DNA of 64,000 nt from Candidatus Hadarchaeum sp. (GTDB lineage: Archaea; Hadarchaeota; Hadarchaeia; Hadarchaeales; Hadarchaeaceae). This document shows, one piece after another, positions 1,663 through 64,000 of the stretch (position 1 is the stretch's first letter; every line of letters begins with the position of its first letter). The stretch is taken from positions 17,355-81,354 of the forward strand of contig DYTO01000003.1 of the NCBI GenBank assembly GCA_020725895.1, read 5' to 3'. A model generated the notes under the pieces. That model was not told the origin of the DNA. It saw only the letters and a program-made list of their open reading frames with translations, and ran no database searches. Made by a program: the position numbers and the translations under genes.

Positions 1663-2046
1663 TCACTCGGTTGCTACTGTCGCGTTATCCGCATCGACGA
1701 CGAGCTTGTCCCCTGTCTTGAGCTTCTCTATTTCCAAGCTGTCGACGCAAGGTATGCCCGCCAAAATAACGCCAGTCGCGACAATAGTCTCCGTCTCCTT
1801 GTTCAGGATTGCCGCCGGCGCAACGCCGTTCTTCTTCAGCCCGTAAATCACGTAAGAACCAACGGTCGAGCCTTTACCTTTCGGGAAGACCAGGATTTTT
1901 CCTTTCACGCAGCTACCCTCAAGCTCGTGCCCCTTCTCTATCACGATTCCAGTCTTCGGGTCGATCCCGCCGTAGAAGCTCATGGGATTCCGAGAGACTA
2001 GGGCCTCGCCCTTCGTCTTCCCGGGGCTGATCATCCTGCCTTTCAA
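1663..2046 (-). CDS. Phosphomevalonate dehydratase small subunit (AcnX-type aconitase small/swivel subunit, DUF126)
   Basis: 127 aa with Gly-rich DUF126-like motifs. It overlaps the large-subunit gene by 4 nt and is clustered with mvk and the UbiD-like gene, as expected for the archaeal mevalonate pathway. Confidence 0.75.
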   Translation of the reverse strand: MKGRMISPGKTKGEALVSRNPMSFYGGIDPKTGIVIEKGHELEGSCVKGKILVFPKGKGSTVGSYVIYGLKKNGVAPAAILNKETETIVATGVILAGIPCVDSLEIEKLKTGDKLVVDADNATVATE

Positions 2047-3230
2047 GATGTTCTCCCCTCCAGCAAGTCGTCCAGGCTCTTGAAGACCACCTGTTGCTTG
2101 CAGAAGCTAGGAAGGTAGTTCGCGGCCTTCCCGGAGTCGACTGCCGTGGTCTTGTATCCCATCTGCTCGATAGGCGCTACCACAGCACAGGTGTCCGCGA
2201 CGACTTTCCCGCCAGCGCGCTCGATGATTTCCGTGAAACCCATCTTCGTCGCGGTGTCCTTCGTGGTGCGAGATGTGCATATCCATAGCGGTTTTTTCAT
2301 GTGCCTTCCCTCGACCTTGCAGGCGAGGTTCGCGATCTCCTTCAGGGAAGCGTGCGGGCAGCCCAGGATTATGATGTCCGGCTCTTTCCCCGTGTTCAGT
2401 TTCGCGTAAGCTTCCTGCAGCTCATTCTCCCCGACATCTATCGCCTCGATTCCAGATGGCGCCATCTTCTCGGCTTCCGGTGTTATCCCCTCTATGTGGT
2501 AGAGCGCGACCGCGCCCGAGGCGGCCATCGCGGCGCCGAGCGCCTTCAGCTGGTCGACCTCCGCTCGAGCGATCCCTTTGAGATATGGAATCCCGTCCTT
2601 GACGATCTTCCCGACGTGATAGCCCAGGGCACCGAAATCAGCGTTCGATTTCAACTCCACGCCGACCCTGACCAGGAGCGTCGGCTTTCTTTTTTCCGCG
2701 ATGTGCAGCCCGTAGTTCGGGGTCAGTCCACAGATGGCGGCGGCGAGCGCAGACGGGCCACCCTCCCTGTTGGTCCTCGCGCCTATGACGGAGTTCGCGA
2801 AAGAAACCGCTGAAGATTCGGACCACGCGATATGCTCACCGAAGTGCGGGAGGTTACCGACCAGGTAGGGCGTGCACGTGGCCGTCGTCATTATCCCCAT
2901 CTTCTTGAAAGCGTCCATTATCCGGAGCTGCTTCACGGCGAAATCCTTGGGGAAGCCGAGCTTGTCCCAATCTAGCAGGTCCATTCCCGGCGGGTTCAGG
3001 GTAGTGTGTACCATGACCTTTGTGTTCTTCGCCGCGATGTCCTCCAGGAACTCGAGACCGGGGTCGCCTATCGACTTGTACGAAACTCCTGCGACTTGAA
3101 CGGAACTCACGGGAATCATCTTGTCGGCGCCGTATATCTCGCCAAGGCGCACGAGAAGGCGGAACATCCTCTCGACGGTCTCGCCCTGCTCGCCTGAGAG
3201 CATTTTCTCCTGTTCTTTCGTCAGGTACAT
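2043..3230 (-). CDS. Phosphomevalonate dehydratase large subunit (AcnX-type aconitase large subunit, DUF521)
   Basis: 395 aa AcnX-like protein in a cluster with the small subunit, the UbiD-like decarboxylase and mevalonate kinase. Confidence 0.75.
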   Translation of the reverse strand: MYLTKEQEKMLSGEQGETVERMFRLLVRLGEIYGADKMIPVSSVQVAGVSYKSIGDPGLEFLEDIAAKNTKVMVHTTLNPPGMDLLDWDKLGFPKDFAVKQLRIMDAFKKMGIMTTATCTPYLVGNLPHFGEHIAWSESSAVSFANSVIGARTNREGGPSALAAAICGLTPNYGLHIAEKRKPTLLVRVGVELKSNADFGALGYHVGKIVKDGIPYLKGIARAEVDQLKALGAAMAASGAVALYHIEGITPEAEKMAPSGIEAIDVGENELQEAYAKLNTGKEPDIIILGCPHASLKEIANLACKVEGRHMKKPLWICTSRTTKDTATKMGFTEIIERAGGKVVADTCAVVAPIEQMGYKTTAVDSGKAANYLPSFCKQQVVFKSLDDLLEGRTS

Positions 3231-3329: not shown

Positions 3330-3467
3330 TTATTTTTTTCTAATTTCTGTTTCAAACATCTTCATGATGTTCCTGTGGTATGTGATTATAACAAACACCG
3401 CCGCCGCGACCAAGACGATGATGACGACAAGGAACAAATTTGACAACGACTGCGGCTGGTCAGTCAA
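3330..3467 (-). CDS. Possible 45-aa single-TM peptide (TTG start overlapping the stop of the UbiD-like gene)
   Basis: Translation LTDQPQSLSNLFLVVIIVLVAAAVFVIITYHRNIMKMFETEIRKK; below the 60-aa cutoff of the ORF track; speculative. Confidence 0.15.
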   Translation of the reverse strand: MTDQPQSLSNLFLVVIIVLVAAAVFVIITYHRNIMKMFETEIRKK

Positions 3468-4750
3468 CCCAAGTAATCTTTAGGATTCAATTTCATCGGG
3501 AGCTCGGGCTTTTTGAAATCGTTGGGGTCGCGGTCGCCCGGAATCGTAAGGTCGAAACCCATCTTCGTGGTCATCCTGGTGTCGAGGTCGGATGACGGGT
3601 CCAATGATGAGCCCTTCTCGCGCCTGCTGATGATGTCGCGGTCGCCCTGGAACCGTGTCGCCATGGCCCACTCGACCTCCTGCGGGTTGTGGATGTCTAT
3701 ATCTTCATCGACAACCCAAACGTGCTTCACAGACTTGTGCCCCTTGAAGGCCGCCTCTATCGCCTTCCGCCCATCGTCAGGGTTCTTCTTCTTGATGCTG
3801 ATGACTGCGTGCAGCCACGAGCATCCGCCCGGCGTCACGTAAACGTCCTTGCACTCGCAGACCTTGTTCACCTCGCGCATGATCGTCGGCTCGCGGGGCA
3901 TTCCCATCAGGGTCTTGTGCTCGAGGCCGCCCGGCAGAAGCGCGTGGTAAATCGGCTTGTCCTTTATGAAAATCTTCTTCACTTTCGCGACGGGCTGCTT
4001 CCGGATTATGTCCGGAGTCTCTGTCAGGTCGAGGAAAGGCCCCTCGTCGTGCTGTTCTCCGGTGATCTCCATTATCATCACTATTTCCGCTTCCGGGACC
4101 TTGTGTCCCGCAATCTCGACGAGCTCGGTATCCGCCAGCGCGTTCGCAATCTCGAGCTCGCTCTTCCCGAGCTCAACCGAAGTCGCGGCAGAAATCAGCA
4201 CCTGCATAGAGTTCCCTATGCAGACCGCGAACTCCCTGTTGCCGCGTTCGATGAAAGTGTTGAAATCCCTTGGGAGAATCCTGAGGACGACCTTGTCCTT
4301 CCCGAGCACCATCATCCTGTGAAAAGAGATGTTCTGCCCGAGTTCGGGGTCGCTCGCGACGACGACTCCCGACGAGATGTACGGGCCGCCGTCCAACGGG
4401 TAGTGGAAGAGAACCGGGAATTGGGAGAGGTCGACCGCGACTTCCTTGTAGCCCTGAGTCTTGGCGACATTCGGCTTCTTGGGGTTTTCAATGGCCTTCG
4501 CTAGTCTCGTGATGATCTCGTCCGGTCTGATGCCCAGGCCGGTCGCGACTAGCTCACGCGTCGAGCAGATGTTCACTACGACGGGCATCGAGAGGCCCTT
4601 GACGTTCTCGAAGAGGAGCGGCTTCTCATTCCACATTTTCGCGATCGTGCAAAGCTCGTACTTGACGTCGACGGGGCGCTTGACCCTCGTCAGCTGCCCC
4701 TTGCTTTCCAAGATCTTCAGGAATTCTCGCATGTTCATTTCATCAACCAA
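3464..4750 (-). CDS. UbiD-family decarboxylase, predicted anhydromevalonate phosphate decarboxylase (prFMN-dependent)
   Basis: 428 aa UbiD-like protein. It lies between mevalonate kinase and the phosphomevalonate dehydratase subunits and overlaps the mvk stop. Confidence 0.7.
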   Translation of the reverse strand: MVDEMNMREFLKILESKGQLTRVKRPVDVKYELCTIAKMWNEKPLLFENVKGLSMPVVVNICSTRELVATGLGIRPDEIITRLAKAIENPKKPNVAKTQGYKEVAVDLSQFPVLFHYPLDGGPYISSGVVVASDPELGQNISFHRMMVLGKDKVVLRILPRDFNTFIERGNREFAVCIGNSMQVLISAATSVELGKSELEIANALADTELVEIAGHKVPEAEIVMIMEITGEQHDEGPFLDLTETPDIIRKQPVAKVKKIFIKDKPIYHALLPGGLEHKTLMGMPREPTIMREVNKVCECKDVYVTPGGCSWLHAVISIKKKNPDDGRKAIEAAFKGHKSVKHVWVVDEDIDIHNPQEVEWAMATRFQGDRDIISRREKGSSLDPSSDLDTRMTTKMGFDLTIPGDRDPNDFKKPELPMKLNPKDYLG

Positions 4751-5669
4751 TCCTTGTCTTCAGCACCTCAAAACCTTCACTCTCGATTGCCTGCGCGACC
4801 TTGTTCTGGAGCTTTTCCCCTGGCGTCAGCGCGACAATGTTGCCTCCGAGGCCGCCCCCGGTCATCTTCGCGCCGTAGGCGCCGTTATCGCGCGCAATCT
4901 CGACCAGGAGATCCAGCTCCTTGCAGGAGACCTCTATAGCCTGGAGGAGTTCGTGATTTTTGTCCATCATCTCGCCGACATTTTCCATGTCGAAAACCAG
5001 AAGAGCCTCGCGCGCCTCGTTAGCGAGTGCGCGGGCCTTGTTGAAAATCTCGTCGTATTTCTCCGGGTTTTTTTCTTTTCTCTCCTTGACGCCGGCGACT
5101 GCCGCCGCGGTGTTCGTGACGAGGCCGGTGTTCGCTATGATGATTTCGACGGGCTCCTTGACCTTCAAAAGGTCTATGATATTTGGCTGGCCTTTGACGA
5201 ACCAGATCAGGCCACCGTATGTGGCCGCCGTGTTGTCCACTCCTGACGGCACGCCGTGGTATCCCTTCTCGCCCTCGAACGCGATCTCGTTTATCTTCTC
5301 GTCGGAAAAATCCAAATTGAACTCTTTTGACAGCGCGCGGGCGAGGGCGACGCAAGACGCTGCGCTGGCGCCTATCCCGCTTGCCGCCACCAAATCCCCT
5401 TCCAACTTTATCTTGATCGGGTTCCTCGCCGTGTCGACCCCGGCTGCCTTCAGGACACGCGAAATGGAATCCCTCTGCTGGTCGAGCTTCTCCTTCTTGT
5501 AACCCGGGGTCTCCGGCCTTTTGTCGTCCAGATACCAGCCTTCTCCGTCCCAGCGCTCGACCGTGCAAGTCGTCGCCTTGTCAATCGCGGAAACTATCGA
5601 AGGAATCCCAAACACGACAAAGTGCTCGCCGAAGAGTATGACTTTCCCGTAACCTGCGCCGTGTCCCAT
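4743..5669 (-). CDS. mvk: Mevalonate kinase
   Basis: GHMP kinase motifs: KVILFGEH, ASGIGASAAS (for GSGLGSSAA), KMTGGGLGG. Confidence 0.85.
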   Translation of the reverse strand: MGHGAGYGKVILFGEHFVVFGIPSIVSAIDKATTCTVERWDGEGWYLDDKRPETPGYKKEKLDQQRDSISRVLKAAGVDTARNPIKIKLEGDLVAASGIGASAASCVALARALSKEFNLDFSDEKINEIAFEGEKGYHGVPSGVDNTAATYGGLIWFVKGQPNIIDLLKVKEPVEIIIANTGLVTNTAAAVAGVKERKEKNPEKYDEIFNKARALANEAREALLVFDMENVGEMMDKNHELLQAIEVSCKELDLLVEIARDNGAYGAKMTGGGLGGNIVALTPGEKLQNKVAQAIESEGFEVLKTRIG

Positions 5670-6396: not shown

Positions 6397-7275
6397 CTAC
6401 TGAATGGCTGTCTGCCCCAACTTGAACAACAAAGCCTTCGCGCCGCCCATCTGGATGATCTTTCCCCTGCATTTCGAGCAGACGGCCGCGGCCTTCTCTA
6501 TGTCCGCGCGGTAGCTCTTGTACTCCGGGACTTTTTCGATTATCCTGTCCGCGATCGCGGGCAGCTGCTTGGCCGGGATTTCGAAGTTCCCGCAAATCGG
6601 GCAGCTCGATAGCTCCTCCACCGCGCTCACGCCCATCGCCGGCCTCTGGAAGCCGGCCGGATGCCGCTTCTTCGCGAGGTGGACCGCGTCGTATGGGCAG
6701 ACCTCCTCGCAGCTCGCGCAGCTTATGCACTTGTCGTGCATGTACTTGACCGTCCTCTTGTTCCCGCTGTCTATCAGCTCTATCGCGAAAGCTGGGCAGG
6801 CCTTCTCGCAGGCGTTGCAGCCCGTGCACTTCTTTTCGTCAAGGTCGGGCAGACCCCTGAATCCTTCCGGTGCCGGCCACTCCTTGAAATCCGCCTTCAA
6901 CACCGCCGCAATCCCCTTTGCTATCACCTGAGGGCTAGGCGGGCAGCCGGGGACGTAAGCAACGACTGGGACGAATTTATCGGAGGGGTCCATGACGCTG
7001 TATGATTTCTGGAAGATCCCGCTAGTGAGGCCGCAAGCACCGATTGAAATCACGACCCTGGGCTCCTTCAATTTCTTGTAGACTTCCTTCAAGTGGTCCA
7101 TCATCTTCACTGTCACGAGGCCGACGACGATCATCGCGTTTGCCTTTTCAGGCTCGTCCACAACTTTTACATTCATATTCCCGATCCCGTACCTCGAAGC
7201 AAGCGCGCTCACGACCTCGATGTCGCAACCGTTGCACGAGCCGACGTTCAGGCGATAGGCGTTTATCTCCACCAT
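6397..7275 (-). CDS. [NiFe] hydrogenase small subunit, NuoB-like (group 4 type), fused to a 2x[4Fe-4S] ferredoxin domain and a C-terminal Cys4 ribbon
   Basis: NuoB/HycG-type proximal-cluster motifs GSCNGCD, IGACGLTSG, VPGCPPSP. Two CxxCxxCxxxCP motifs (CTGCNACEKACP, CISCASCEEVCP) and C-terminal CPIC...CSKC. Start taken at the internal ATG (MVEINAY), which overlaps the large-subunit stop. Confidence 0.75.
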   Translation of the reverse strand: MVEINAYRLNVGSCNGCDIEVVSALASRYGIGNMNVKVVDEPEKANAMIVVGLVTVKMMDHLKEVYKKLKEPRVVISIGACGLTSGIFQKSYSVMDPSDKFVPVVAYVPGCPPSPQVIAKGIAAVLKADFKEWPAPEGFRGLPDLDEKKCTGCNACEKACPAFAIELIDSGNKRTVKYMHDKCISCASCEEVCPYDAVHLAKKRHPAGFQRPAMGVSAVEELSSCPICGNFEIPAKQLPAIADRIIEKVPEYKSYRADIEKAAAVCSKCRGKIIQMGGAKALLFKLGQTAIQ

Positions 7276-8405
7276 TTTCGACCCAACTCCTCCAGGCTGA
7301 CTTTCGATATCTTCCCTGTCTTTTCGTCCACGATAGTGACCCTGTTCGTGCAAGAGATGCACCTGTCGAGGCTCTCCAATATCGGCGGCAGGTTCTCGAC
7401 CTTCTCGCCGCGCAGCATCTCCGGGACAGCTCGGACGTTGACGTAGCTGGGCGGCCTCAGCTTGATCCTCTCCGGGTAATTCGTGCCGTTGAGCCTCGCG
7501 TAGTATATCAGCTCGCCGCGCGGCGCCTCGACCCTTCCACTCTCCTCGCCCACTGGCGGTTCCCCGACATCCGCCTTGATCTCGCCCTGGGGCATGTTCT
7601 CGACGATCTGCCTCAGTATACTTATCGTCTCAGGGATTTCCCTCGCCCGGACCATCGACCTCGCCTGCACATCGCATCCCTTCTCGGTTATCAACTCGAA
7701 ATCGAGGTCATCGTAGACGAGGTGTGGGTCGTCCCTCCTTATGTCGCTCGCAACGCCGGATCCTCGCAGTATCGGCCCGACGACCGCGAAAGCCCTGGCC
7801 TTGTCCCTGGGCAAAATCCCAATCCCTGAAAGCTTCGGGGAATGGACTTCCATGGCCTTGAAAATTTCATCGTTGAGCGCGTTGTATTCGTCGAGCAGCT
7901 GGAGCAGGCTCTTCATCACCTGCGGGGAAACGTCGCGCCTCACGCCGCCAATCGCGTTCACGGAGAAGTGCACGCGGTTCCCGCATATCGCCTCGATGAT
8001 GTCCATCAGCTTCTCCCTCGCGTTCAAGGCAACCATGAAGCGCTCGGTGTCGTGGATCATGTGAAAGAGGAGCGCGAACCACATGTAGTGGCTGTGGAGC
8101 CTGTCGAGCTCGAAAACCATGGTCCTGATGTAGTTTGCCCTCGGAGGGGCTTCAAACCCGAAGACGTTCTCGACTGCGAGGCAATAGGCCGTCGAGTGGG
8201 CCTGCGAGCAGAGGCCGCACACCCTCTCCGCGAGGAAAACGTCCTGCTTGATTGTCTTCGTGAGCATCAGGGTCTCGATCCCCCTGTGCGTGAAGCCCTG
8301 CTCGATCAGAACATCGGTGATCTTCCCGTCCTGGACCCTGACTTCATAAAGTTCTGGCTCGATCACGAGCGGGTGGTAGGGGCCGATCTTGAGGACTTCG
8401 GGCAT
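7263..8405 (-). CDS. [NiFe] hydrogenase large subunit, NuoD/HycE/EchE-like (group 4) with Ni-binding cysteines retained and a C-terminal extension
   Basis: N-terminal RVCGLCSQAH (RxCGxCxxxH) and C-terminal DRCISCTNRVTIV, which resembles the HycE DPCYSCTDR pattern, followed by a ~22-aa tail typical of endopeptidase-processed large subunits. Start taken at MPEVLKIGPYHP, overlapping the HdrB-like stop (TGATG). Confidence 0.8.
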   Translation of the reverse strand: MPEVLKIGPYHPLVIEPELYEVRVQDGKITDVLIEQGFTHRGIETLMLTKTIKQDVFLAERVCGLCSQAHSTAYCLAVENVFGFEAPPRANYIRTMVFELDRLHSHYMWFALLFHMIHDTERFMVALNAREKLMDIIEAICGNRVHFSVNAIGGVRRDVSPQVMKSLLQLLDEYNALNDEIFKAMEVHSPKLSGIGILPRDKARAFAVVGPILRGSGVASDIRRDDPHLVYDDLDFELITEKGCDVQARSMVRAREIPETISILRQIVENMPQGEIKADVGEPPVGEESGRVEAPRGELIYYARLNGTNYPERIKLRPPSYVNVRAVPEMLRGEKVENLPPILESLDRCISCTNRVTIVDEKTGKISKVSLEELGRKWWR

Positions 8406-9271
8406 CAGACCATCCTCTCCGCGAGCTGTTGCACGGGGCTCCTGTGGACACCGAGAGAAAGTTCCTTCGGCGGCACCCCGAACGAAAGCGCCAATAGCTC
8501 CATCAGGTGGAACACCGGCATTGAATATTTCTTCCCGTATTTCTTGAGCGACATCTGCCCTATCTCCATCTGGACGTTGCATGCGGGGCAGCAGACCACG
8601 ACTCCTTCAGTCCCCATCTGCTGGTAGGCCTCCATCTTCGGCATAAGGTTGCTATTCATCGAGTACTCCTCGTTGACGTGCGATGTCGGGAAGCCGCAGC
8701 ATATCTGATCCAGCTTGCTCCTGTTTATCTGGGCTCCTGTGGCCGCGACCAGGTCGGTGAGCTGGTTGGGTTTCCTCCACATGTCCTCGCCCTCGCTTGC
8801 CCTGAAAAGGTGACAGCCGTAGTGGACGGCCAGTTTCGCCTTTATAGGATTCTTGACGAGTTTTTTAATCTCGCTCACACCGATGTCGTCGCCCAGGACC
8901 TCTACGATGTGCCTGACCTTGTTCTTGCCCTCGTACGTTCTGCCTATCTTGGAGAGCACGCTGTTCACTTCCTTCCTTTGCTCCTTGTCCTCAAGGTCCT
9001 CCCTCGCCTCCCAGAGCGTCTCGTAACAGCCGTTGCACAGGACCACCGTGTCGAGGCCCTTCTTCTCGGCTATCGCAAGGTTCCTCGCTGAAATCGCGAG
9101 CGCGGTCTTCCTGTCCATGTACCTGCCGACGATCGGGTCGGGACAGCACGAGTATCCTTCCATTTCCACTATTTCCAAACCCAACTTCTCGAAGACCTTC
9201 CTTGTCGCTATCTCGACGCTCGGCAGCCTCTGCGGGATCATGCAACCCCAGAAAATGGCGTACTTCTTCAT
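8405..9271 (-). CDS. hdrB: Heterodisulfide reductase subunit B-like protein with two CCG domains
   Basis: Two Cx31-39CCx35-36CxxC units: GCM...SCCPDP...CNGC and GCH...ICCGFP...VVCCPAC. Start taken at the internal ATG (MKKYAIFWGCM), which forms an ATGA overlap with the upstream gene. Confidence 0.75.
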   Translation of the reverse strand: MKKYAIFWGCMIPQRLPSVEIATRKVFEKLGLEIVEMEGYSCCPDPIVGRYMDRKTALAISARNLAIAEKKGLDTVVLCNGCYETLWEAREDLEDKEQRKEVNSVLSKIGRTYEGKNKVRHIVEVLGDDIGVSEIKKLVKNPIKAKLAVHYGCHLFRASEGEDMWRKPNQLTDLVAATGAQINRSKLDQICCGFPTSHVNEEYSMNSNLMPKMEAYQQMGTEGVVVCCPACNVQMEIGQMSLKKYGKKYSMPVFHLMELLALSFGVPPKELSLGVHRSPVQQLAERMV

Positions 9272-9933
9272 TTCCTCACACCTCTGAGCTTCCTGCGCTC
9301 GGGGTCGTAGCCGCCGCGCTGCACGAAACCCGACTGTTCGATCAGCTGGTGAACTTCCTTCATCTGAGATTCTATCGAGTAGCTCAGCGGAGGCTGCGAT
9401 GCGAGTCCCGCCTCTTCGCGCTTCCTTTGCATCAGCGGCGTGAGGGGTGCCGTGGCGCCGACTGTTGCGATCGATTCGGCGACCGGGGCAACGACGTCCG
9501 GCAATCTCTTGAAAGGCTTGGCGAGCGGGAATTTCCCCTCCTCCCAGTCCTTCTTCAGGACGAGGTGCGTCTGGTTGGGGCTGTTCCTGAACCTTGCGCC
9601 GACGAGCTCCGCGGCCTCCCTTTCGGCCCATTCGGTGCCCGGGATGATGTCGGCGATGCTGTCGATTTCGGGAGCCTCCTTCGGCAACTTGGTCTTCAGC
9701 ACCAGAAGCCTTCCGGCGAGGTCAACGTGGTAAAGCAGCTCTATGTCCAGCCCGGAATCGAGGGCGGCGATGATTATGAACCTCACGTCGTTCCTGACTA
9801 GGGCGCTCGCGGCGTCCCTGATCCCCTCCGGCTTTATCTCGGCCAAGACTTTCCTTTCCCTCTCTATCTTCGCGCTGAGCAGCATTTCGGACAATGTCTT
9901 CTTCAAGAGATCGATTATTTGGTTTTCCTGCAT
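9268..9933 (-). CDS. NuoC-like (30 kDa, hydrogenase subunit C family) protein with a ~80-aa C-terminal extension
   Basis: NuoC-like region IIAALDSG...HVDLAGRLLVLKTKLPKE.PEIDSIADIIPGTEWAEREAAELVGARF; translationally coupled to neighbours on both sides. Confidence 0.6.
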   Translation of the reverse strand: MQENQIIDLLKKTLSEMLLSAKIERERKVLAEIKPEGIRDAASALVRNDVRFIIIAALDSGLDIELLYHVDLAGRLLVLKTKLPKEAPEIDSIADIIPGTEWAEREAAELVGARFRNSPNQTHLVLKKDWEEGKFPLAKPFKRLPDVVAPVAESIATVGATAPLTPLMQRKREEAGLASQPPLSYSIESQMKEVHQLIEQSGFVQRGGYDPERRKLRGVRK

Positions 9934-10410
9934 TCACTTCCCTCCCAGGTAAAGTCTTTTCGCGAGCTCCATGGCTTCCGCCCGCGTGCCTACGCGGATG
10001 GCCTGCGGCGAGCAGAACCTCGCGCAGTTAGGGCTGCCATCGCAGAAGTTGCACTTGTTGGCGGCGCGCCTGTCCTCCTCGAACCAGGCGGCCATCAGGG
10101 GGCAGGCGTACGTGCAAGAGCAGCAGCCTATGCATTTCATCTGGTTCAGGGTGACCCAGCCCGTCTCGTCGTCCTTCGAAATCGCGTCGACCGGACAGGC
10201 GTTCAGGCAAACTGGATTGGCGCAGTGCAGGCAGTTGATCGCCTCGCGGTCGAAATTTTTCGGGTCCACGAAAATCCTGATGTGGCTCTTGTCCAACTCC
10301 AGGGTTCCAAAATTCCGGTTGGCGCAAGCCATCTCGCAGCACTTGCATCCGGTGCAGCGCTCCGGGTCGTATATCAGGACGCGTTGCTGTGAAATATCTT
10401 CGATTTTCAT
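9934..10410 (-). CDS. Ferredoxin with four predicted [4Fe-4S] clusters (HycB/HydN/DmsB-like electron transfer subunit)
   Basis: Four Cys motifs: CTGCKCCEMAC, CLHCANPVCLNACP, CIGCCSCTYACP, CNFCDGSPNCARFCSP. First gene of the operon. Confidence 0.8.
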   Translation of the reverse strand: MKIEDISQQRVLIYDPERCTGCKCCEMACANRNFGTLELDKSHIRIFVDPKNFDREAINCLHCANPVCLNACPVDAISKDDETGWVTLNQMKCIGCCSCTYACPLMAAWFEEDRRAANKCNFCDGSPNCARFCSPQAIRVGTRAEAMELAKRLYLGGK

Positions 10411-10452: not shown

Positions 10453-10830
10453 TTGTCGAGTCGCCCGAGGGGCTGGCTTTTGCTGGGCTGCCGCAACGTT
10501 TTAATAGTACGTAGTCACATTACGTATTATGAAAAAAGGGGAAACGATGTGAGGAGACCCTGTGAAAAAACTTGGCGGGAAATCCTTGAATGGGCCTGGG
10601 AAAGCGGTGCGGAGGAGTTCACCCACAACACTCTTCTGAGAGAGGGGATCGTCCACTACAAGGGAAACAAAAGAAACCAGACCAACTCGGCCACGTCATC
10701 CCTGCGCCAGATGTGGAAGGCGGGTCTCCTGATGCGCCCGGTCGCTGGGAAGGGCCGGAAGGCAAGCATCTACTCCCCCATATCACGCGAGGAGTACAGA
10801 CAAAAACTGATGCAAGTTCTTTATTTTTGA
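10453..10830 (+). CDS. Hypothetical protein; true start uncertain (possibly the GTG at 10549)
   Basis: ORF only; an upstream GAGGAG RBS-like element at 10552-10557 does not fit this frame. Confidence 0.3.
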   Translation: MSSRPRGWLLLGCRNVLIVRSHITYYEKRGNDVRRPCEKTWREILEWAWESGAEEFTHNTLLREGIVHYKGNKRNQTNSATSSLRQMWKAGLLMRPVAGKGRKASIYSPISREEYRQKLMQVLYF

Positions 10831-10840
10831 ACCGCGCCGC

Positions 10841-11575
10841 TCACAATTGCAACCCGAACAACTCGATTGCGTTCTTGGTCGTGGCCTCGGCGACCTCCTC
10901 ATCTGGGATTCCCTTCAATTTCGAAACGGCCGACAAAGTCTTCAATACGTCGATTGGCCTTGAAACGTGATCGCGATAACGCACGGGCGTGTCCGTCTCG
11001 AGCAGAAGACGGTCAAGAGGAACCTCCCTTATCGCCTGCCTGTGATACTCGCTGTACTCCGCCGCCGGCGAGGCAGAAACGTGGCATCCGAGGTCGAGGA
11101 CGCCCCTGAGGACATCGAGCGGCCCGCTGTACCAGTGAAAAACGATTCTTTTCAACCCTCTCTGCTTGACCATCTCGAAAGCCTCCTTCCAGGCCCACCT
11201 CGTGTGCATGATTACTGGCTTTTCGCTCCGCTGCGCAATTTCCAGTATTTTTTCCAGCGCCGAAACCTGCAGGTTCCTGTCCTTGTCGTACTTGAAATCT
11301 ATCCCGACCTCGCCCAGCGCGACGCACTTCCCAATGTTCTCCTCGATGAATTCGATGTCGCGTGAAAAATCATCTTTCAGGTTCCAAGGATGGAGGCCGA
11401 GCGCGGGGAAAACGAAATTTTTGTGCGATGCCGCGAGTTCCAGCGCCCTTTTGTTAGACCCGGTTTCGGAACCGACGGCGATGACTGCGGCCACTCCCGC
11501 CTCTCTCGCTTTTCCGAGGTCGTTGTCAATATCCTGGATTCCCTCCAGATGGGCATGGCCGTCTATCACTCTCAT
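10841..11575 (-). CDS. tatD: TatD-family metal-dependent hydrolase (DNase)
   Basis: DGHAHLE start and TIM-barrel hydrolase His/Asp motifs, 244 aa. Confidence 0.75.
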   Translation of the reverse strand: MRVIDGHAHLEGIQDIDNDLGKAREAGVAAVIAVGSETGSNKRALELAASHKNFVFPALGLHPWNLKDDFSRDIEFIEENIGKCVALGEVGIDFKYDKDRNLQVSALEKILEIAQRSEKPVIMHTRWAWKEAFEMVKQRGLKRIVFHWYSGPLDVLRGVLDLGCHVSASPAAEYSEYHRQAIREVPLDRLLLETDTPVRYRDHVSRPIDVLKTLSAVSKLKGIPDEEVAEATTKNAIELFGLQL

Positions 11576-19706: not shown

Positions 19707-22562
19707 TCACTTTTTAGATTTCAGTTTTTTTGACCCGATTGAAATTTGTCTCCACAAGAACACCAGCAGAACGATCGCCATACCTATCGCTGCGATTATG
19801 ATCACGTTGATCGGCAGGGTCGCCCCAAAGGGCTGCGTCGGCAGGGTGGTGATGGTTATCGTGTGCGGTGAAAAAGTCGGTATAGAAACCAATACTTGGA
19901 TCCCCCTGTTCCCTGAAACCAACAGATATTCCGGAACGTTCTCGTTCGTGGGATCAAGTATGTCCTCATAGTCATCCGCCTGGCCGATCTCCTGGTTGTC
20001 GTAAAGGACCCTGACTTCGCCCAGGTTCAAAACGGGTATCGTCGCATTGTCGACGTTCAAAACTATTGTCTTGCCGTTTTCCACATCAGAACTCACGGTC
20101 ACGTCGACCTTCGCGCTGGAATCGACCCTTACTGAGATGGAAACGTCCCCGTGCTGGAAAGCCGTTTGGAAATTCTCCGCGAGGCCCGTCCTTATCTCTA
20201 TGACTGCGCCCAAGTTGCCCACCGCGAACGCATTCTCGAAATCCTGCATTTGCTCGTTATCCAGCAAAATGTCGAGCTCGAGATTCGAGTTTACGAAATT
20301 CTCTCTCAGGTTCTCAAGGGTTTCTGCGACTTCCTGGACCACCACAGTGACTCCGGCGGTTGCCGTTGATGGAGAATATAAATTGTCGCCGGCAAATGCG
20401 GCCGTTATCGTGAGCTGGGTGGTACCAGCGACGGCCGGGGCAGTGAAAATGACCGTGGCTTGTCCGGAGTTGTCCGTTGTAGAACTCGCTTGGCTAAAGC
20501 TCCCTGAAGCGACACTCCATGTTATCGTCTTCCCGGAGAGTGTCGTGCTGCCCGTGATCAGGGTCGCGGTCAGTTCAAGCGTGTTTTCCGAACCTATCAC
20601 GGATGAAGACTGTGAAATCGTCAACGAAGTCGAAGGCGAGCCGACTGCCCCTGTGAAGCGATCGACAGCTCTCCACGCCATCGAAAACGAGACCGTTCCG
20701 GACGAAGTAGCCTGGCTCGAGCCGTAGCTGCTGTCGCCGCTGAAAGACGCAGTTATGGTGACGTTTTCCGTTGCGGTCACGCTTGGCGCCGTGAAAGTGA
20801 CAGATATTTGCCCTGAATTATCCGTCGTCCCGCTCGCCGCCGACAGGTTGCCCGACGTCGCCGACCAAGAGATCGTCTTTGATGAAATGGCGTTGCTCGA
20901 GTTGTCCCTCAGAGTGGCCGTCAGCGTCACAGTACCCCTGGATTCAAGACTGAAGCTAGAGGGGCTTATCGAAAGCGATGTCGAGGTGGTGCTGCCGCCT
21001 CCGGGTGGCGGAGAAGATGGTGCCGAGGGTGTTGTGATCGTCCCGCTCCAGCCCTCGGCAAGACTCCATCCGGTGCTCGTGACAACAGTCTCGCCGAAAC
21101 CATCGACTGCGCCCCAGGCGGGTTCGGTCATCCCTATCGTTCCGTTCCAATTCTCGACACCAGACCAAGCCGACGAGGTGTTGATCGAAGCCGTCCAACC
21201 ATCAACCCCGCTCCACGACGCATTTGCGCTGACCGCCGACTCCCAAGTCTCTGAATGTTTCCAGCCGGGCTCCTCGGATCCAACCGTGGCCGTTGGTTCC
21301 GGAGATGTGAAAATGCGGAGCAACCGCCAAACGCCGTTATTGAAACCGCCATCGTAACCTCCCAACAACCAGACTTTGTTATCGTGAACGATCGTCGCCT
21401 GGTCGTAACGCGGGGTCCAACCGGGGGTGATCATCACCTGAGTCCAGTTCTGTCCGTCTGAAGAGTACCAAATGTTCTCACCGTACTCGTCCCACAACTC
21501 CCCATTCCCTGCCATCACCCACATCAAGTTGTCAAAACCCACCGAGGAATGATACCTCTTCGGAGCCCATGCCGCGGCGGTTGTTGCTTGCGTCCAGTTC
21601 TCACCGTCGCTCGAGTACCAGACATCGTTCTTGTAAACGCCATTGCTGTAACCTCCCAGTACCCACATGTTGTCGCCGAACGCAAGGGATGTTTGGCCGT
21701 GGCGGGCGCTCCAATTCGCGGCCGTGGTAGCTTGCGTCCAGTTCTCACCGTCAGAAGTATACCAAACATCGCTCTTGTACGCGCCGTCAAAACCCCCTAT
21801 TACCCAAATCTTGTTGTCGAAGACTACTGACGTGTGGCCCCACCTAGAAGTCCAGCCCGGCGACGCCGTGGCCTGCGTCCAGTTCTCGCCGTCCGTGGAA
21901 TACCAGACGCTTGAGTCCGATCCGCCGATCACCCACATTTTGTTGTCGAACACCACTGAGGTGTGGTCTCTTCGCGGGCTCCAGTTTGCGTCGCTCGTGG
22001 CCTGCGTCCAGTTCTCGCCGTCCGTGGAATACCAGACATCGTCATCGTTGGCGATGCCGTTGTAACCGCCGAGCACCCACATCTTTCCATCGTAAGATAG
22101 GGCCGTGTGGCCGAGCCGCCCCGCCCAGCTTGCGGAAGCCGTGGCTTGCGAGTCGACGTACGGCAAAATAGTGTTGCTCCAATTGCTGTTGCTGCCGGCG
22201 CTGGTGTTGCCATAGTAAACGTAGACGTCGCTGTCAAAGCTTTTCCGCAACACCCAAACGATTGCTTCGTTTTCCGTGAAATTTTCAATCCAATAATTCA
22301 GTTCCCCCGCGGTTTCGTTTTCAATGAAACGCAGGTCGCGGTAGTCCGCCTGCATTCTTGCGTTGTAGGGAACCACTAACTGCAAATGGTAGTTCTCGGG
22401 GTGTGTGCCAGAGATGATGACCGGCAAGCGGTATTCCCAGCTATTGTCCCACCAGTATGAGTTGTCATACCCGGCGGCCCCGCCGAGAGGCACGAATCGG
22501 ACTATCATGAAAAATATCAAGCCAGCGACAAAGAACTTTCCACAACTGCATTTCTCAAACAA
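19707..22562 (-). CDS. Large cell-surface protein: signal peptide, about six Kelch-like beta-propeller blades, Big-like Ig domains, Thr/Ser-rich linker, C-terminal TM anchor
   Basis: Repeated blades VWYSTDGENWTQAT...WSPRRDHTSVVFDNKMWVIGG, Ig-like TLTATL...ISWSATSG...TDNSGQ modules, C-terminal IIIAAIGMAIVLLVFLWRQ...KKLKSKK. Confidence 0.7.
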   Translation of the reverse strand: MFEKCSCGKFFVAGLIFFMIVRFVPLGGAAGYDNSYWWDNSWEYRLPVIISGTHPENYHLQLVVPYNARMQADYRDLRFIENETAGELNYWIENFTENEAIVWVLRKSFDSDVYVYYGNTSAGSNSNWSNTILPYVDSQATASASWAGRLGHTALSYDGKMWVLGGYNGIANDDDVWYSTDGENWTQATSDANWSPRRDHTSVVFDNKMWVIGGSDSSVWYSTDGENWTQATASPGWTSRWGHTSVVFDNKIWVIGGFDGAYKSDVWYTSDGENWTQATTAANWSARHGQTSLAFGDNMWVLGGYSNGVYKNDVWYSSDGENWTQATTAAAWAPKRYHSSVGFDNLMWVMAGNGELWDEYGENIWYSSDGQNWTQVMITPGWTPRYDQATIVHDNKVWLLGGYDGGFNNGVWRLLRIFTSPEPTATVGSEEPGWKHSETWESAVSANASWSGVDGWTASINTSSAWSGVENWNGTIGMTEPAWGAVDGFGETVVTSTGWSLAEGWSGTITTPSAPSSPPPGGGSTTSTSLSISPSSFSLESRGTVTLTATLRDNSSNAISSKTISWSATSGNLSAASGTTDNSGQISVTFTAPSVTATENVTITASFSGDSSYGSSQATSSGTVSFSMAWRAVDRFTGAVGSPSTSLTISQSSSVIGSENTLELTATLITGSTTLSGKTITWSVASGSFSQASSTTDNSGQATVIFTAPAVAGTTQLTITAAFAGDNLYSPSTATAGVTVVVQEVAETLENLRENFVNSNLELDILLDNEQMQDFENAFAVGNLGAVIEIRTGLAENFQTAFQHGDVSISVRVDSSAKVDVTVSSDVENGKTIVLNVDNATIPVLNLGEVRVLYDNQEIGQADDYEDILDPTNENVPEYLLVSGNRGIQVLVSIPTFSPHTITITTLPTQPFGATLPINVIIIAAIGMAIVLLVFLWRQISIGSKKLKSKK
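21540..22100. repeat. Four to five tandem nucleotide repeats (~130-145 nt period) inside the surface-protein gene
   Basis: Near-identical segments, e.g. gtggcctgcgtccagttctcgccgtccgtggaataccagac at 21868-21908 and 21997-22037, with related copies near 21586 and 21729. Confidence 0.7.
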
Positions 22563-38950: not shown

Positions 38951-40495
38951 TTGAGGTTTGGCGATAGGTTGAAGTTCGAACTTGAAGCAAAACTGACGTT
39001 CAGCGCGAACATCGAGCCTGCGAAGAAGGACATCCAGGCGGCGCTAGACTCCCGGGAAGCGATTTTTCTCAAGGGCGCCCCGAATGGCAAGGAGAAGGAG
39101 GCCGCGAAGCTCGAGGGATGGAAGGCCTCCGGGAAGGAGCTAGACATCAAGATAAGCTCAGGCAGGTACGTCAGGGCCCACGACGCCCTTCTCAGGCTTG
39201 CGAAGACCCTCGCAACCGACATCGGAAAGAAGCACAAGGTCGGCGTGAGGGGAATTATCGCGCCAAAATACTCGATAACGATCCCGGCGAAAGAGGCGAC
39301 AAAGGAGATGAAAGAGGAACTCGCGAAGCTTCCGTACAAGATAACGATCCACGAGGGGGCGGCAAAGATATCTCTTGAAAATCTGAGCGAGGCGGACCTG
39401 CGCGGGAGGATAGTCGACCGCCTGATAAACGAAATAGACGCAATCCTTTCCAAAGCTCCCGCGCGAATCGGCCACGCATTCGAGGAGCAGCCACTGAAAA
39501 TCGTGAACGAGAGCGGGAAAAAGAAGCACGCTTTCAAGGAGGACCCGTTCGAGGTCGCGAAAAAGGCGGGTTGGCTCGCTGAGTTCCCCGGAAGGGGGCA
39601 GTGGATATACGAAGAACCCTACGCGAAGCTGATCAGGGCGCTTGAGGACCTCATAATCCGGGAAATCGCGGAGCCTCTCGGGTTCAAGGAAGCGATGTTC
39701 CCTAAGCTGATTCCGCTCGAGGTCATGCAGAGGATGCCAGGATACCTCGACGGCGTCCCGGAGGGAATGTACTACGTCTGCCCGCCGCCGCGCGAGCCCG
39801 AAACTTTCTCAAAATTCAAGCAAAAACTCAAGCTCACCAAGCAAATACCGACGGACGAGCTCAAGAACGTTCTGAAGGACCCCGCCTACGTCCTGGCCCC
39901 GGCTCAGTGCGAGCCTTTCTACCAGACTTTCTCATCCCAGATCGTCCGCCTCGAGAAGCTCCCGGTGAAGCAGTACGACAGAAGCGGCTGGACGTACAGA
40001 TGGGAGGGCGGCGGCGTCGAGGGCCTCGTCAGGACCCAGGAGTTTCGCAGGATAGAGTTCGTCGCGATGGGCGCGCCCGAAGACATCGTGAATATAAGGG
40101 ACAAGGTCGTGGAGAAGAGCATCGCTCTCTCGGACAAGCTGAACCTCGAGTGGAGGGTCCTAGTTGCTACGCCTTTCTACATGAAGGAGGGTGCCGTCGA
40201 GGAGGACGTCAAAGACAGCAGGAAGGTCGCCACGTACGACCTCGAGGTGATTTTGCCTTACAAGAACGACTGGCTCGAGATCGGCTCGTACAACTTGCAC
40301 AAAACCAAGTTCACAGAGAGCTTTAAAATCAAGGAGGCGAAGGGGAGGGAGGTATGGACGGCCTGCTGCGGTTTCGGGACCAGCCGCTGGGTTGTGGGGT
40401 TCCTGGCGCAGCACGGCATCGATCCTTCCAAGTGGCCGGAAGCCATCAGGAAACTGGTGGAGCCGCTGCCGCAACCGACACAGGTGACTGAGTAA
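38951..40495 (+). CDS. serS: Seryl-tRNA synthetase, atypical methanogen-type (class II, zinc-dependent)
   Basis: Class II motif 2 GLVRTQEFRRIEF and motif 3 CCGFGTSRW. Putative zinc ligands APAQCEP and CCGF are spaced as in methanogen-type SerRS (Methanosarcina barkeri). 514 aa with a distinct N-terminal domain. Confidence 0.65.
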   Translation: MRFGDRLKFELEAKLTFSANIEPAKKDIQAALDSREAIFLKGAPNGKEKEAAKLEGWKASGKELDIKISSGRYVRAHDALLRLAKTLATDIGKKHKVGVRGIIAPKYSITIPAKEATKEMKEELAKLPYKITIHEGAAKISLENLSEADLRGRIVDRLINEIDAILSKAPARIGHAFEEQPLKIVNESGKKKHAFKEDPFEVAKKAGWLAEFPGRGQWIYEEPYAKLIRALEDLIIREIAEPLGFKEAMFPKLIPLEVMQRMPGYLDGVPEGMYYVCPPPREPETFSKFKQKLKLTKQIPTDELKNVLKDPAYVLAPAQCEPFYQTFSSQIVRLEKLPVKQYDRSGWTYRWEGGGVEGLVRTQEFRRIEFVAMGAPEDIVNIRDKVVEKSIALSDKLNLEWRVLVATPFYMKEGAVEEDVKDSRKVATYDLEVILPYKNDWLEIGSYNLHKTKFTESFKIKEAKGREVWTACCGFGTSRWVVGFLAQHGIDPSKWPEAIRKLVEPLPQPTQVTE

Positions 40496-57204: not shown

Positions 57205-57813
57205 GTGAAAAAACTTGTTAAGGAGATGCGCGATTATTTCGACGTCCAGAACGAGGTCAGGGAAAAAATGCTGGAACTCTCGAGAGAGGTAATACGGAAC
57301 TCTTCACGCTCGATCTCTGCCACCCACCGGCAGGAAAAGAAATTAGCTTTGAATTTTCTGACAACCGCGAAGAAGAAACTTGGCGAGATGGAAAAAATCG
57401 CCGGGAAATATCCTCAACTTTCGAGCTACGGGTACATTCACTCCGCGCAGCAGGAGTACGTCGAGGCGGAAATAATCAAAAGATTGTCCGAGAACGGCGA
57501 AATACCGTCACCAAAAAAGCTTGGAGTACATTTCATCCCCTATCTAGGCGGGGTCTCGGACGCGATAGGTGAACTGAGGCGGACGGTGCTTGACATGATC
57601 CGCAGAAACGAGGTCCAGAAAGCCGAGAAAACGCTCACGATAATGGAGGAACTATTCGAGTTCCTTATGGAGTTCGACTATGTGGATGCGGTCATCCCAG
57701 GCATGAGGCGCCGGCAGGACGTGAGCAGGCAGATACTGGAAAAGACCCGCGGAGACCTGACGACTGCGCTGAGACAGGAAAAACTCGAGAAGGCCCTGAG
57801 GAGAGGCAAATGA
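57205..57813 (+). CDS. Translin-family protein (tentative); start uncertain (GTG at 57205 or ATG at 57226)
   Basis: All-helical ~200 aa with ...QQEYVEAEII... and PYLGGVSDAIGELRR, which resembles the translin yLlGv.DltGEL.R motif. Confidence 0.4.
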   Translation: MKKLVKEMRDYFDVQNEVREKMLELSREVIRNSSRSISATHRQEKKLALNFLTTAKKKLGEMEKIAGKYPQLSSYGYIHSAQQEYVEAEIIKRLSENGEIPSPKKLGVHFIPYLGGVSDAIGELRRTVLDMIRRNEVQKAEKTLTIMEELFEFLMEFDYVDAVIPGMRRRQDVSRQILEKTRGDLTTALRQEKLEKALRRGK

Positions 57814-62424: not shown

Positions 62425-62426
62425 AC

Positions 62427-62744
62427 TTAATCCTTCAATAACTTCTTCAGGTTTTTTGGAAGATTGTTCGTCAGCCAATCTTGCCAATCCCGCCTCAGCT
62501 TCTTCGGGAGCCGCCTCAATTGCCAATTAATTTCTTTGGTGAGCTTAACGCCGGCATCCGAAGGATTGGTCGCGGCAACGACTTTGATAGCATAGTAGGC
62601 GGCACCGAATGCGTGCTGAGGGACGTGCGCGGTCGCCACCGCCTGGCCTGCCGCGCGCGCGGCAAAGCAAGCCACGTCATTTCTTTTCGCTTTTCGGGCG
62701 GCCGCGCACAACGCGAGACACGCGGGCGTCGAGTTCTGGTACAC
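62427..62744 (-). CDS. Hypothetical protein (105 aa)
   Basis: ORF only. Confidence 0.3.
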   Translation of the reverse strand: MYQNSTPACLALCAAARKAKRNDVACFAARAAGQAVATAHVPQHAFGAAYYAIKVVAATNPSDAGVKLTKEINWQLRRLPKKLRRDWQDWLTNNLPKNLKKLLKD

Positions 62745-62828
62745 TGCATTTCCATAAAAAAATAGTTTGTGTGTTGGAAACTGCTACTCAACCACGTAGC
62801 CAATGTTGAGCAAACGGTGTTAGTATAG

Positions 62829-63812: not shown

Positions 63813-63819
63813 ATTTAAT

Positions 63820-64000
63820 CCTTTATTTTTATATCATCCTCTATTGTTTCAATAGCCTCACTAATCTTTTCTAGATTTTTAAACAATCTTTCTTTCGTGG
63901 GTGTTTTTCCTCTTATTGATGAACCAGGATTTTTTTTAATTTGTTCTCTAAATTGTATCATCCTATCTCTTACCTTTTGCGCTATAAATTTATTGTTATC
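63820..64000 (-). CDS. C-terminal fragment of a low-GC gene continuing beyond the window
   Basis: Open frame ...NNKFIAQKVRDRMIQFREQIKKNPGSSIRGKTPTKERLFKNLEKISEAIETIEDDIKIKD* ending 4 nt before the next start. Confidence 0.4.

Follow-up and report, generated by a model that had tools for sequence, protein, structure and literature searches.

HdrB, the catalytic subunit of heterodisulfide reductase (Hdr), has been described as a partner of group-4 [NiFe]-hydrogenases in several archaeal lineages. In the Methanocellales, an HdrB-containing Ech-type hydrogenase (Mtc_0479-0486) was named Drh, for disulfide-reducing hydrogenase (Lyu & Lu, 2015, as cited in PMC6046458). Its genes are listed as coding for a ferredoxin, HdrB, a putative transmembrane protein, and EchE-, EchB-, EchF- and EhaN-like subunits (PMC6046458 and supplement), and they are transcribed and upregulated in syntrophic co-culture at low H2 (PMC6046458). 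Other systems are Ehd in Methanomethylicia, Ehe in Culexarchaeia, Ehg in Nezhaarchaeia, and "Ehd-like" clusters, including those of Bathyarchaeia (PMC9723716; PMC12700198). Drh, Ehd, Ehe and Ehg have all been presented as membrane-associated, most of them as ion-translocating (PMC6046458; PMC9723716; PMC12700198), and have been proposed to link H2 to the reduction of CoM-S-S-CoB, the disulfide of coenzymes M and B, or of another disulfide (PMC6046458; PMC9723716). Here, a relative of these systems is described, which is encoded by five genes on the minus strand of a 64,000-nucleotide stretch from Candidatus Hadarchaeum sp. (contig DYTO01000003.1, positions 17,355 to 81,354), referred to below as the window. 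The window system is a soluble variant of the HdrB-linked hydrogenases already described and not a new kind of enzyme. The initial annotation, made from the sequence alone, had regarded HdrB inside an Ech/Hyc-type module as an unrecognised architecture, a view that does not hold given Drh, Ehd, Ehe, Ehg and the Ehd-like clusters.

With Drh, the window cluster shares an Ech-type [NiFe]-hydrogenase encoded together with hdrB and a 4Fe-4S ferredoxin gene, the lack of an antiporter-like subunit, and a proposed electron transfer from H2 to a disulfide. In contrast to the window cluster, Drh has an EchB-like, NuoH-type subunit that spans the membrane and one further putative transmembrane protein, and its EchF-like and EhaN-like subunits (NuoI and NuoB), as given in the annotation table from which Drh is known here, are separate genes, whereas in the window they are fused. 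Ehd, Ehe and Ehg resemble the window cluster in the hdrB gene embedded in a group-4 operon and in the disulfide-linked role proposed for them, but they possess NuoH-like and antiporter-like subunits with proposed ion translocation, and some carry extra modules (SdhA, CdhA, GcvH, FdhA, HdrA). Among the 88 loci examined in this work, designated by L numbers, two that are taken to be of this kind (L018 and L026) match the window in the order ferredoxin, [NuoL], NuoC, HdrB, large subunit. The large subunits of the loci taken to be of the Ehd, Ehe and Ehg kind are only 39-45% identical to that of the window and fall outside its clade. What appears to be new is a compact, membrane-free form whose small subunit unites NuoB and NuoI. 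The occurrence of this form as a separate, conserved clade over Hadesarchaea, Bathyarchaeia, an Asgard-labelled contig and three bacterial metagenome-assembled genomes (MAGs) also appears to be new. No account of a membrane-free, HdrB-linked group-4 hydrogenase was found in the open-access literature and bioRxiv.

The five genes of the window touch or overlap, in the order polyferredoxin, NuoC-like subunit, HdrB homologue, large subunit and fused small subunit (Table 1). The TGA stop of the polyferredoxin gene is directly followed by the ATG of the NuoC-like gene, the NuoC-like and HdrB genes overlap by 4 nt (ATGA), the HdrB and large-subunit genes by 1 nt (TGATG), and the two hydrogenase subunit genes by 13 nt. 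These junctions fit the translational coupling that the initial annotation had claimed for the five minus-strand genes. Its domain assignments for all five proteins were likewise recovered with Pfam and NCBIfam searches. All five translations are identical to sequences in a public protein collection, so the chosen start codons agree with independent gene calls. An A/T-rich element upstream of the first gene is a putative promoter of the operon.

Table 1. Genes, domains and other features of the HdrB-linked hydrogenase locus (window coordinates; aa, amino acids).
Feature	Coordinates	Strand	Extent	Evidence
Five-gene unit	6397-10410	-		
Polyferredoxin gene, HycB/AorA/DmsB-type, four CxxCxxCxxxC-type motifs (4x[4Fe-4S])	9934-10410	-	158 aa	Pfam Fer4_11 1e-12
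NuoC-like subunit gene	9268-9933	-	221 aa	
NuoC-like (30-kDa) domain	9508-9933	-	aa 1-~142	Pfam Complex1_30kDa 1e-17 (aa 32-142)
C-terminal HdrC-like segment, without the HdrC ferredoxin domain	9268-9519	-	aa ~139-221 and stop	Profile against PDB
HdrB homologue gene, two CCG domains	8405-9271	-	288 aa	PF02754 x2, 4e-26
Large-subunit gene, NuoD/HycE-type	7263-8405	-	380 aa	PF00346 (Complex1_49kDa) 1.9e-58; PF00374 (NiFeSe_Hases, N-terminus)
Fused small-subunit gene	6397-7275	-	292 aa	
NuoB/MbhJ/HycG-type domain	6892-7275	-	aa 1-~128	PF01058 (Oxidored_q6, aa 14-124) 2e-21
Fused HycF/NuoI-type domain	6397-6891	-	aa ~129-292	NCBIfam HycF/HyfH 76 bits (aa 119-272)
Putative promoter region with A/T-rich, TATA-like element TTATAATAA	10411-10452	-	~30 nt 5' of first ATG	Sequence reading

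Judged by its sequence, the large subunit belongs to group 4 and not to group 3c. Its best matches in the PDB are MbhL (6cfw_L, 4.9e-62) and HycE (7z0s_E, 7.1e-62), followed by a weaker match to Nqo4 (2e-48). In an alignment of 32 homologous sequences, C63, C66 and H70 as well as D347, C349, C352 and R355 are invariant, so both CxxC motifs that bind Ni and Fe are intact, in line with what had been annotated, and a degenerate Ehr/Nuo-type subunit without Ni ligands is ruled out. The C-terminal tail noticed at the outset consists of the 25 residues that follow R355 (aa 356-380, window positions 7266-7340), and a tail of about this length is kept in the window clade. Presumably it is removed by a HycI-type protease, whose gene adjoins the cluster in L005 and L030 and lies about 3 kb away in L001.

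The small subunit combines two domains. In its NuoB-type part, the ligands of the proximal [4Fe-4S] cluster are C14, C17, C81 and C111, and the domain matches MbhJ (6cfw_J, 3.5e-29, query residues 7-127 on chain residues 28-148). It lacks the N-terminal "..ARRKSPW.." segment of membrane-bound relatives, as seen in comparison with class-B and Mbh-like NuoB. The HycF/NuoI-type part, with 6u8y_N and 7z0s_F as PDB matches, carries the ligands of two [4Fe-4S] clusters (C150-C160 and C183-C193) and a CxxC...CxxC arrangement (C225, C228, C266 and C269). Each of these 4 + 8 + 4 cysteines is kept in at least 16 of 17 fused small subunits, which, together with the domain matches, supports the annotated fusion of NuoB to a 2x[4Fe-4S] domain and a Cys4 element.

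By homology, the CCG-domain protein is a genuine HdrB. It aligns over its full length with the solved HdrB chain 5ODC_B (E = 6.2e-69, residues 3-285 on 2-289), and further solved HdrB chains are matched as well (9SFI_C, 8RVU_b, 7BKB_B). The ligands of the two noncubane [4Fe-4S] clusters, C10, C42, C43, C79 and C82 for one and C153, C191, C192, C228 and C231 for the other, are kept in 22 of 22 family members. The best NCBIfam model is that of HdrB (TIGR03288, 262.2 bits), and the far lower scores of SdhE (132 bits), TfrB (65), GlpC (42) and GlcF (32) rule out a protein of the GlcF/LutA/SdhE type, so that the kinship with Hdr assumed in the initial annotation stands. E87 and H154 of HdrB have been assigned to the proton path in a recent structure paper, in which T79, Y81, Y84, E94 and K98 of HdrC line the substrate and proton path of canonical HdrBC (PMC13518236). 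In the alignment with 5odc_B, the equivalents of E87 and H154 are present in the window protein as E88 and H154.

Compared with an ordinary NuoC, the NuoC-like protein has about 70-80 extra residues, and profile comparison indicates homology between its last ~80 residues and the C-terminal part of HdrC. This HdrC-derived tail had been overlooked in the initial annotation and is new here. In a single-sequence scan, aa 151-204 only weakly match the HdrC C-terminus (TIGR03290, E = 1.3e-3; PDB 8RVU_c, E = 0.027). A profile built from 17 aligned tails of soluble, bacterial and membrane-bound loci was searched against the PDB and matched HdrC 5ODC_C over residues 107-182 of 184 with E = 2e-12, as well as 8RVU_c (1.4e-11), 8RVV_C (1.6e-11), 9SFI_E (4.8e-10) and 7BKB_C (2e-3). 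The significant matches are HdrC chains only, always at their C-terminal end, and the next match has a value of 0.58. As the whole NuoC-like protein contains no cysteine, the ferredoxin domain of HdrC is absent. The tail is kept in the soluble and bacterial loci and in the two membrane-bound loci L018 and L026. When 1.84 billion cluster representatives were scanned, the full-length protein with its tail was matched by about 20 clusters defined at 50% identity, and the remaining matches cover the NuoC domain only.

The retained part of HdrC is reported to be the extended segment that packs on HdrB in the Mvh-Hdr crystal structure of Wagner et al. (2017), and the homology suggests that the NuoC tail clamps HdrB onto the hydrogenase. 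In an AF2 model of the chain alone, aa 1-120 reach a predicted local distance difference test score (pLDDT) of 80-95 per 10-residue block, and from aa 121 onward the score falls to 36-67. Foldseek assigns the model to the NuoC/Nqo5/MbhK fold with a probability of 1.0, a result that speaks only to the NuoC domain owing to the low confidence of the tail, and the counterpart in the Mbh of Pyrococcus furiosus (6CFW) is matched at 9e-8. The poor model of the tail is consistent with a segment that folds only on its partner. The fusion of NuoC with an HdrC tail thus offers a concrete docking hypothesis for the whole Drh/Ehd family.

The nearest PDB relatives of the polyferredoxin are the Fe-S subunits of AOR-type enzymes and HycB (8c0z_C, 1.2e-25; 6x6u_B, 4.7e-22; HycB 7z0s_B, 3.4e-12). 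All 16 ligand cysteines are kept in 22 of 22 family members among the loci examined. A chain annotated as "Fe-S-cluster-containing hydrogenase subunit" (9mqx_E) is matched too, and since none of the other chains of 9mqx is among the listed matches of the large subunit, the small subunit or HdrB, it was not taken as a solved homologue of the complex.

No transmembrane helix is predicted in any of the five proteins. The criterion was a 19-residue segment with a mean Kyte-Doolittle hydropathy of at least 1.6; the highest mean found is 1.45, and NuoH and NuoL of a relative, used as controls, have 8 and 12 segments over the threshold. BLASTP with proteins of the relatives detected no further NuoH, NuoL, HycI, HypA/C/D/F or HdrC in the 64 kb of the window, which also holds no Mrp or HdrA gene. 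Pfam scans of ~50 other open reading frames (ORFs) of the window found housekeeping functions only, with no respiratory or hyp genes. In the five subunits, Pfam and NCBIfam revealed neither flavin- nor NAD-binding domains, nor any known bifurcating cofactor.

Relatives of the unit were found through the large subunit, for which 938 homologues were found at E ≤ 1e-10. Of those with a name, the nearest come from Hadesarchaea/Hadarchaeales (60-66% identity, with 66% for a Hadesarchaea MAG), an Asgard-labelled Hodarchaeaceae contig (61%) and Bathyarchaeia (~50%). A contig scan gave the best 80 loci, with no Methanocella among them, and the 88 loci were mapped by BLASTP of the five proteins together with NuoH, NuoL and maturation genes, with flanks of ±8-10 kb where the contig allowed. 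Besides the window, 15 independent loci show the same gene order, with the fused small subunit and with no adjoining NuoH or NuoL. They are found in Hadesarchaea, Bathyarchaeia, metagenome contigs and one Asgard-labelled contig, with large-subunit identities of 46-77%. The absence of membrane subunits from the operon and its surroundings, claimed in the initial annotation for this DNA, therefore extends from the window to the syntenic units of the related loci, and no known variant with adjacent membrane subunits turned up within the soluble clade.

A permuted unit, in which the small-subunit gene precedes the ferredoxin, NuoC, HdrB and large-subunit genes, occurs in three bacterial loci (L019 and L021 among them, with L025 as the third), of which two belong to NC10/Methylomirabilota and one to Baltobacteraceae; again, no NuoH or NuoL is found beside the unit. 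The bacterial large subunits are 361 aa long and stop at the L2 motif, without a C-terminal tail. Judging by these sequences, the bacterial units point to inter-domain transfer and possibly to a maturation that is independent of the protease. HdrB, NuoH and NuoL are united in one operon in four loci (L018, L026, L052 and L066), which derive from Desulfurococcales, two Bathyarchaeia and Hermodarchaeota. The other loci examined carry no HdrB and are ordinary clusters of the Mbh/Ech-like kind. In an exploratory neighbour-joining tree of the large subunits, midpoint-rooted and without bootstrap, the membrane-free HdrB-linked sequences, including the bacterial ones, group in a single clade that is separate from the membrane-bound sequences, and the four loci with NuoH and NuoL lie outside it.

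Three well-studied enzymes help to place the building blocks. The soluble arm of the Escherichia coli formate hydrogenlyase (HycB-HycF-HycG-HycE, 7Z0S) offers four of them, each with a significant PDB match in the window, and it also has a partner enzyme attached at the end of the electron wire, which HycB bridges to the hydrogenase. That partner is FdhF, whereas in the window it is HdrB; NuoC and NuoD are fused in HycE and separate in the window, where instead the equivalents of HycG and HycF are fused; and the membrane subunits HycC and HycD have no counterpart. MvhADG-HdrABC (5ODC) likewise pairs a [NiFe]-hydrogenase with HdrB and its two noncubane clusters, and the C-terminal part of its HdrC is kept in the window, but its hydrogenase is of group 3c and not of group 4, and the window lacks HdrA with its FAD, MvhD and the HdrC ferredoxin domain. 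Among solved structures, the Mbh of P. furiosus comes closest to the large, small and NuoC-like subunits. It differs in its ~10 membrane subunits, in its ferredoxin-driven H2 evolution coupled to ion pumping, and in having no HdrB.

Taken together, the five genes would encode one cytoplasmic H2:disulfide oxidoreductase complex, neither bifurcating nor ion-pumping, in which a group-4 module is wired to HdrB; this reading is given a slightly better than even chance. The initial annotation had arrived at the same best interpretation, an H2:disulfide role without HdrA and probably without bifurcation, and no HdrA is encoded in the window. That the five proteins form a single cytoplasmic complex is proposed by comparison with the homologous soluble arm of formate hydrogenlyase, and the group-4 module would have lost every membrane subunit. 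The NiFe site of the large subunit would split H2, and the electrons would pass to the proximal [4Fe-4S] cluster of the NuoB-type domain and onward through the two [4Fe-4S] clusters of the fused HycF/NuoI-type domain. Their further route would lead, probably across the four clusters of the HycB-type polyferredoxin, to the pair of noncubane [4Fe-4S] clusters in HdrB, and there R-S-S-R' would be reduced to two thiols. HdrB would be held on the hydrogenase by the HdrC-derived part of the NuoC-like subunit, and either the polyferredoxin or the NuoI-type domain would replace the missing ferredoxin domain of HdrC. In favour of this, every cofactor site of the wire is intact and conserved throughout the family, all five genes are linked by their start and stop codons, and the same role had been put forward independently for Drh, Ehd and Ehe. 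Since there is neither a NuoH/NuoL-type subunit nor HdrA, no ion pumping and no electron bifurcation would be expected.

The 2H+/H2 couple lies at -414 mV, and an older midpoint potential (E0') for a disulfide of the CoM/CoB type is about -140 mV. More recently, -281 mV has been given for the CoM/CoB disulfide couple (PMC13518236), and at either potential the reduction of such a disulfide with H2 is exergonic, so the enzyme could work at very low H2. The proposed product of the five genes would thus be a strongly exergonic, high-affinity enzyme that regenerates thiols with H2 or scavenges H2. Its substrate need not be CoM-S-S-CoB in host lineages that are largely non-methanogenic. That particular disulfide is uncertain because the host lineage is not known to be methanogenic, HdrB scores below the equivalog cutoff of its model, and T79-K98 of HdrC are not retained.

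Several points weigh against an H2:disulfide oxidoreductase of this kind. The TIGR03288 score of 262.2 bits stays under the cutoff of 345.15, which marks the protein as a member of a related subfamily and not as an assured CoM-S-S-CoB reductase, and the pocket residues T79-K98 lie upstream of the HdrC part that is retained, so the pocket must differ from that of canonical HdrBC. Characterised group-4 hydrogenases mostly evolve H2, and a soluble H2:disulfide reaction discards free energy, which would be odd for energy-limited subsurface archaea. The search for membrane subunits covers 64 kb, and partners may be encoded elsewhere in the genome; in L001 (Hadarchaeales JAVZGN010000001.1, 1-5352), a complete Mbh-like operon with NuoK-, NuoL-, NuoB-, NuoC-, NuoD-, NuoH- and NuoI-type genes lies 1.4 kb upstream of the unit. 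In addition, no member of the soluble, Drh, Ehd, Ehe or Ehg families is known to have been purified or assayed.

Other readings are less probable. An enzyme that runs in reverse or takes another donor, as an H2-evolving fermentative redox valve that oxidises ferredoxin through the polyferredoxin and/or a low-potential dithiol through HdrB, is unlikely but has to be reckoned with: Mbh, formate hydrogenlyase, Ech and Coo typically evolve H2, the HycB-type polyferredoxin matches the electron-input subunit of formate hydrogenlyase, and Hadesarchaea as well as Bathyarchaeia are mostly regarded as fermenters or acetogens. However, the oxidation of thiols to yield H2 is endergonic for a CoM/CoB-like couple, and a ferredoxin:H+ enzyme needs neither HdrB nor an HdrC-derived clamp, yet both are strictly conserved. 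Rather unlikely, too, is that the five proteins are the peripheral arm of a membrane-bound, ion-translocating complex of the Ehd/Drh type, with NuoH and antiporter subunits encoded elsewhere or shared. All known characterised group-4 enzymes are membrane-bound, as are the closest HdrB-linked relatives outside the clade, that is, the four loci with NuoH and NuoL and Drh with its EchB-like subunit, and the operon next to the unit of L001 is of the membrane-bound kind. That operon nevertheless owns a complete NuoB/C/D/H/I/L set, on which ground a sharing of its membrane parts was rejected. Neither NuoH nor NuoL stands beside the unit in the 15 syntenic and three bacterial loci or anywhere in the window, NuoB has lost its N-terminal segment and is fused to a NuoI-type domain, and the soluble clade is separate in the tree.

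It is improbable that the noncubane clusters of HdrB serve a redox substrate other than a disulfide, as in SdhE/TfrB, GlcF, LutA and GlpC. CCG domains do occur in many non-Hdr enzymes, HdrB falls short of its equivalog cutoff, and the host lineage is not known to make coenzyme M or B; against this stand the bit scores, which favour HdrB over all these families, the full-length HdrB match with all 10 cysteines and the equivalents of H154 and E87, and the retained HdrC-derived segment. Very improbable is a flavin-free bifurcation in which part of the electrons from H2 would go to a disulfide at HdrB and part, via the polyferredoxin, to ferredoxin. The two possible electron exits would make the complex a functional analogue of MvhADG-HdrABC, but HdrA, flavin and NAD domains and any known bifurcating cofactor are missing from its subunits, and no precedent is known in which a NiFe site or a chain of [4Fe-4S] clusters bifurcates electrons. 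If true, non-methanogenic archaea and certain bacteria would possess a minimal replacement for MvhADG-HdrABC that bifurcates in a new way.

It is customary to regard group-4 [NiFe]-hydrogenases as energy-converting enzymes of the membrane, and a conserved membrane-free clade that crosses domains would show that the NuoB/C/D/I module can also function in soluble form. The H2:disulfide oxidoreductase proposed here also bears on the puzzle of why Hdr-type proteins occur without methanogenesis in Hadesarchaea, Bathyarchaeia, Asgard archaea and some bacteria, and which disulfide they act on. As a soluble complex of five subunits, it would be a much easier target for expression, assay and cryo-electron microscopy than the membrane-bound Drh, Ehd, Ehe and Ehg.

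The neighbourhood of the unit is partly shared among relatives. Upstream of the operon, after a gap of 430 nt, follow TatD (10841-11575) and then PurC, both on the minus strand like the operon itself. The annotated placement of the flanking genes on the other strand thus holds just for Ogg, downstream, and for a small ORF within the gap. This ORF (10552-10830, plus strand, ~92 aa) is divergent from the operon and has no Pfam match; it could encode a small DNA-binding regulator of the operon or be no gene at all. The closest relative, L088 (77%), shares the surroundings widely: Kelch protein, HD, PALP, OTC, PurC, TatD, the five genes, Ogg, mevalonate kinase, UbiD and AcnX. In the Hadesarchaea MAG locus L010, the series OTC (80% identity), PurC, TatD and operon is kept. 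Together with the nearest homologues, this synteny makes a Hadesarchaea-related archaeon the most likely source of the window.

Genes for Ni maturation or regulation (HycI, HypA/C/D/F, NikR) flank the unit in several relatives. A NikR-type regulator is encoded 1-3 kb downstream in one sub-clade (L003, 14680-15081; L087, 13069-13512), in L003 alongside a Zip-family metal transporter. In L001, HycI and HypA are encoded 3-5 kb downstream, together with an ATPase of the ParA/CbiA type that may be HypB, and the two hydrogenases of this locus could cycle H2 between them. Directly downstream of the unit, three Bathyarchaeia loci carry a canonical two-cluster HdrC and a second HdrB (L005, 12118-13544; L013, 4892-6675; L030, 10116-11539), followed in L005 and L030 by HypF, HypC and HypD. 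This pair could be a second disulfide-reductase module fed by the same hydrogenase. Five further Bathyarchaeia loci (L036, L051, L056, L061 and L029) have NuoB-NuoC-NuoD-NuoI-type clusters without HdrB and with no NuoH or NuoL detected nearby, which may be further membrane-less group-4 modules or just split operons.

Elsewhere in the window, AcnX (2043-3230), a UbiD-like decarboxylase (3464-4750) and mevalonate kinase (4743-5669) are encoded in a row on the minus strand. The row looks like the archaeal modified mevalonate pathway, with phosphomevalonate dehydratase and anhydromevalonate-phosphate decarboxylase, and its arrangement is kept in L088, where the small (swivel) subunit of AcnX follows. 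On the plus strand, a class II tRNA synthetase (57810-59396) has a weak match to the C-terminal domain of SepRS and is thus O-phosphoseryl-tRNA synthetase-like, and a seryl-tRNA synthetase (38951-40495) carries a tRNA_bind_4 N-terminal domain. SepRS-like enzymes and seryl-tRNA synthetases with tRNA_bind_4 are typical of methanogens and their relatives, which makes them noteworthy in a Hadesarchaea-like genome. The region 61345-64000, with a G+C content of 39% in its last 2 kb compared with ~55% elsewhere, is possibly a horizontally acquired island, in which a CfrBI-type restriction endonuclease (62829-63812, minus strand) adjoins a protein with a LigD primase-polymerase domain (61345-62424). 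Finally, a protein of 951 aa (19707-22562, minus strand) with Kelch repeats and bacterial Ig-like domains (Big_1/Big_3_5/invasin) is probably a surface protein, and L088 encodes a homologue of it at the same relative position.

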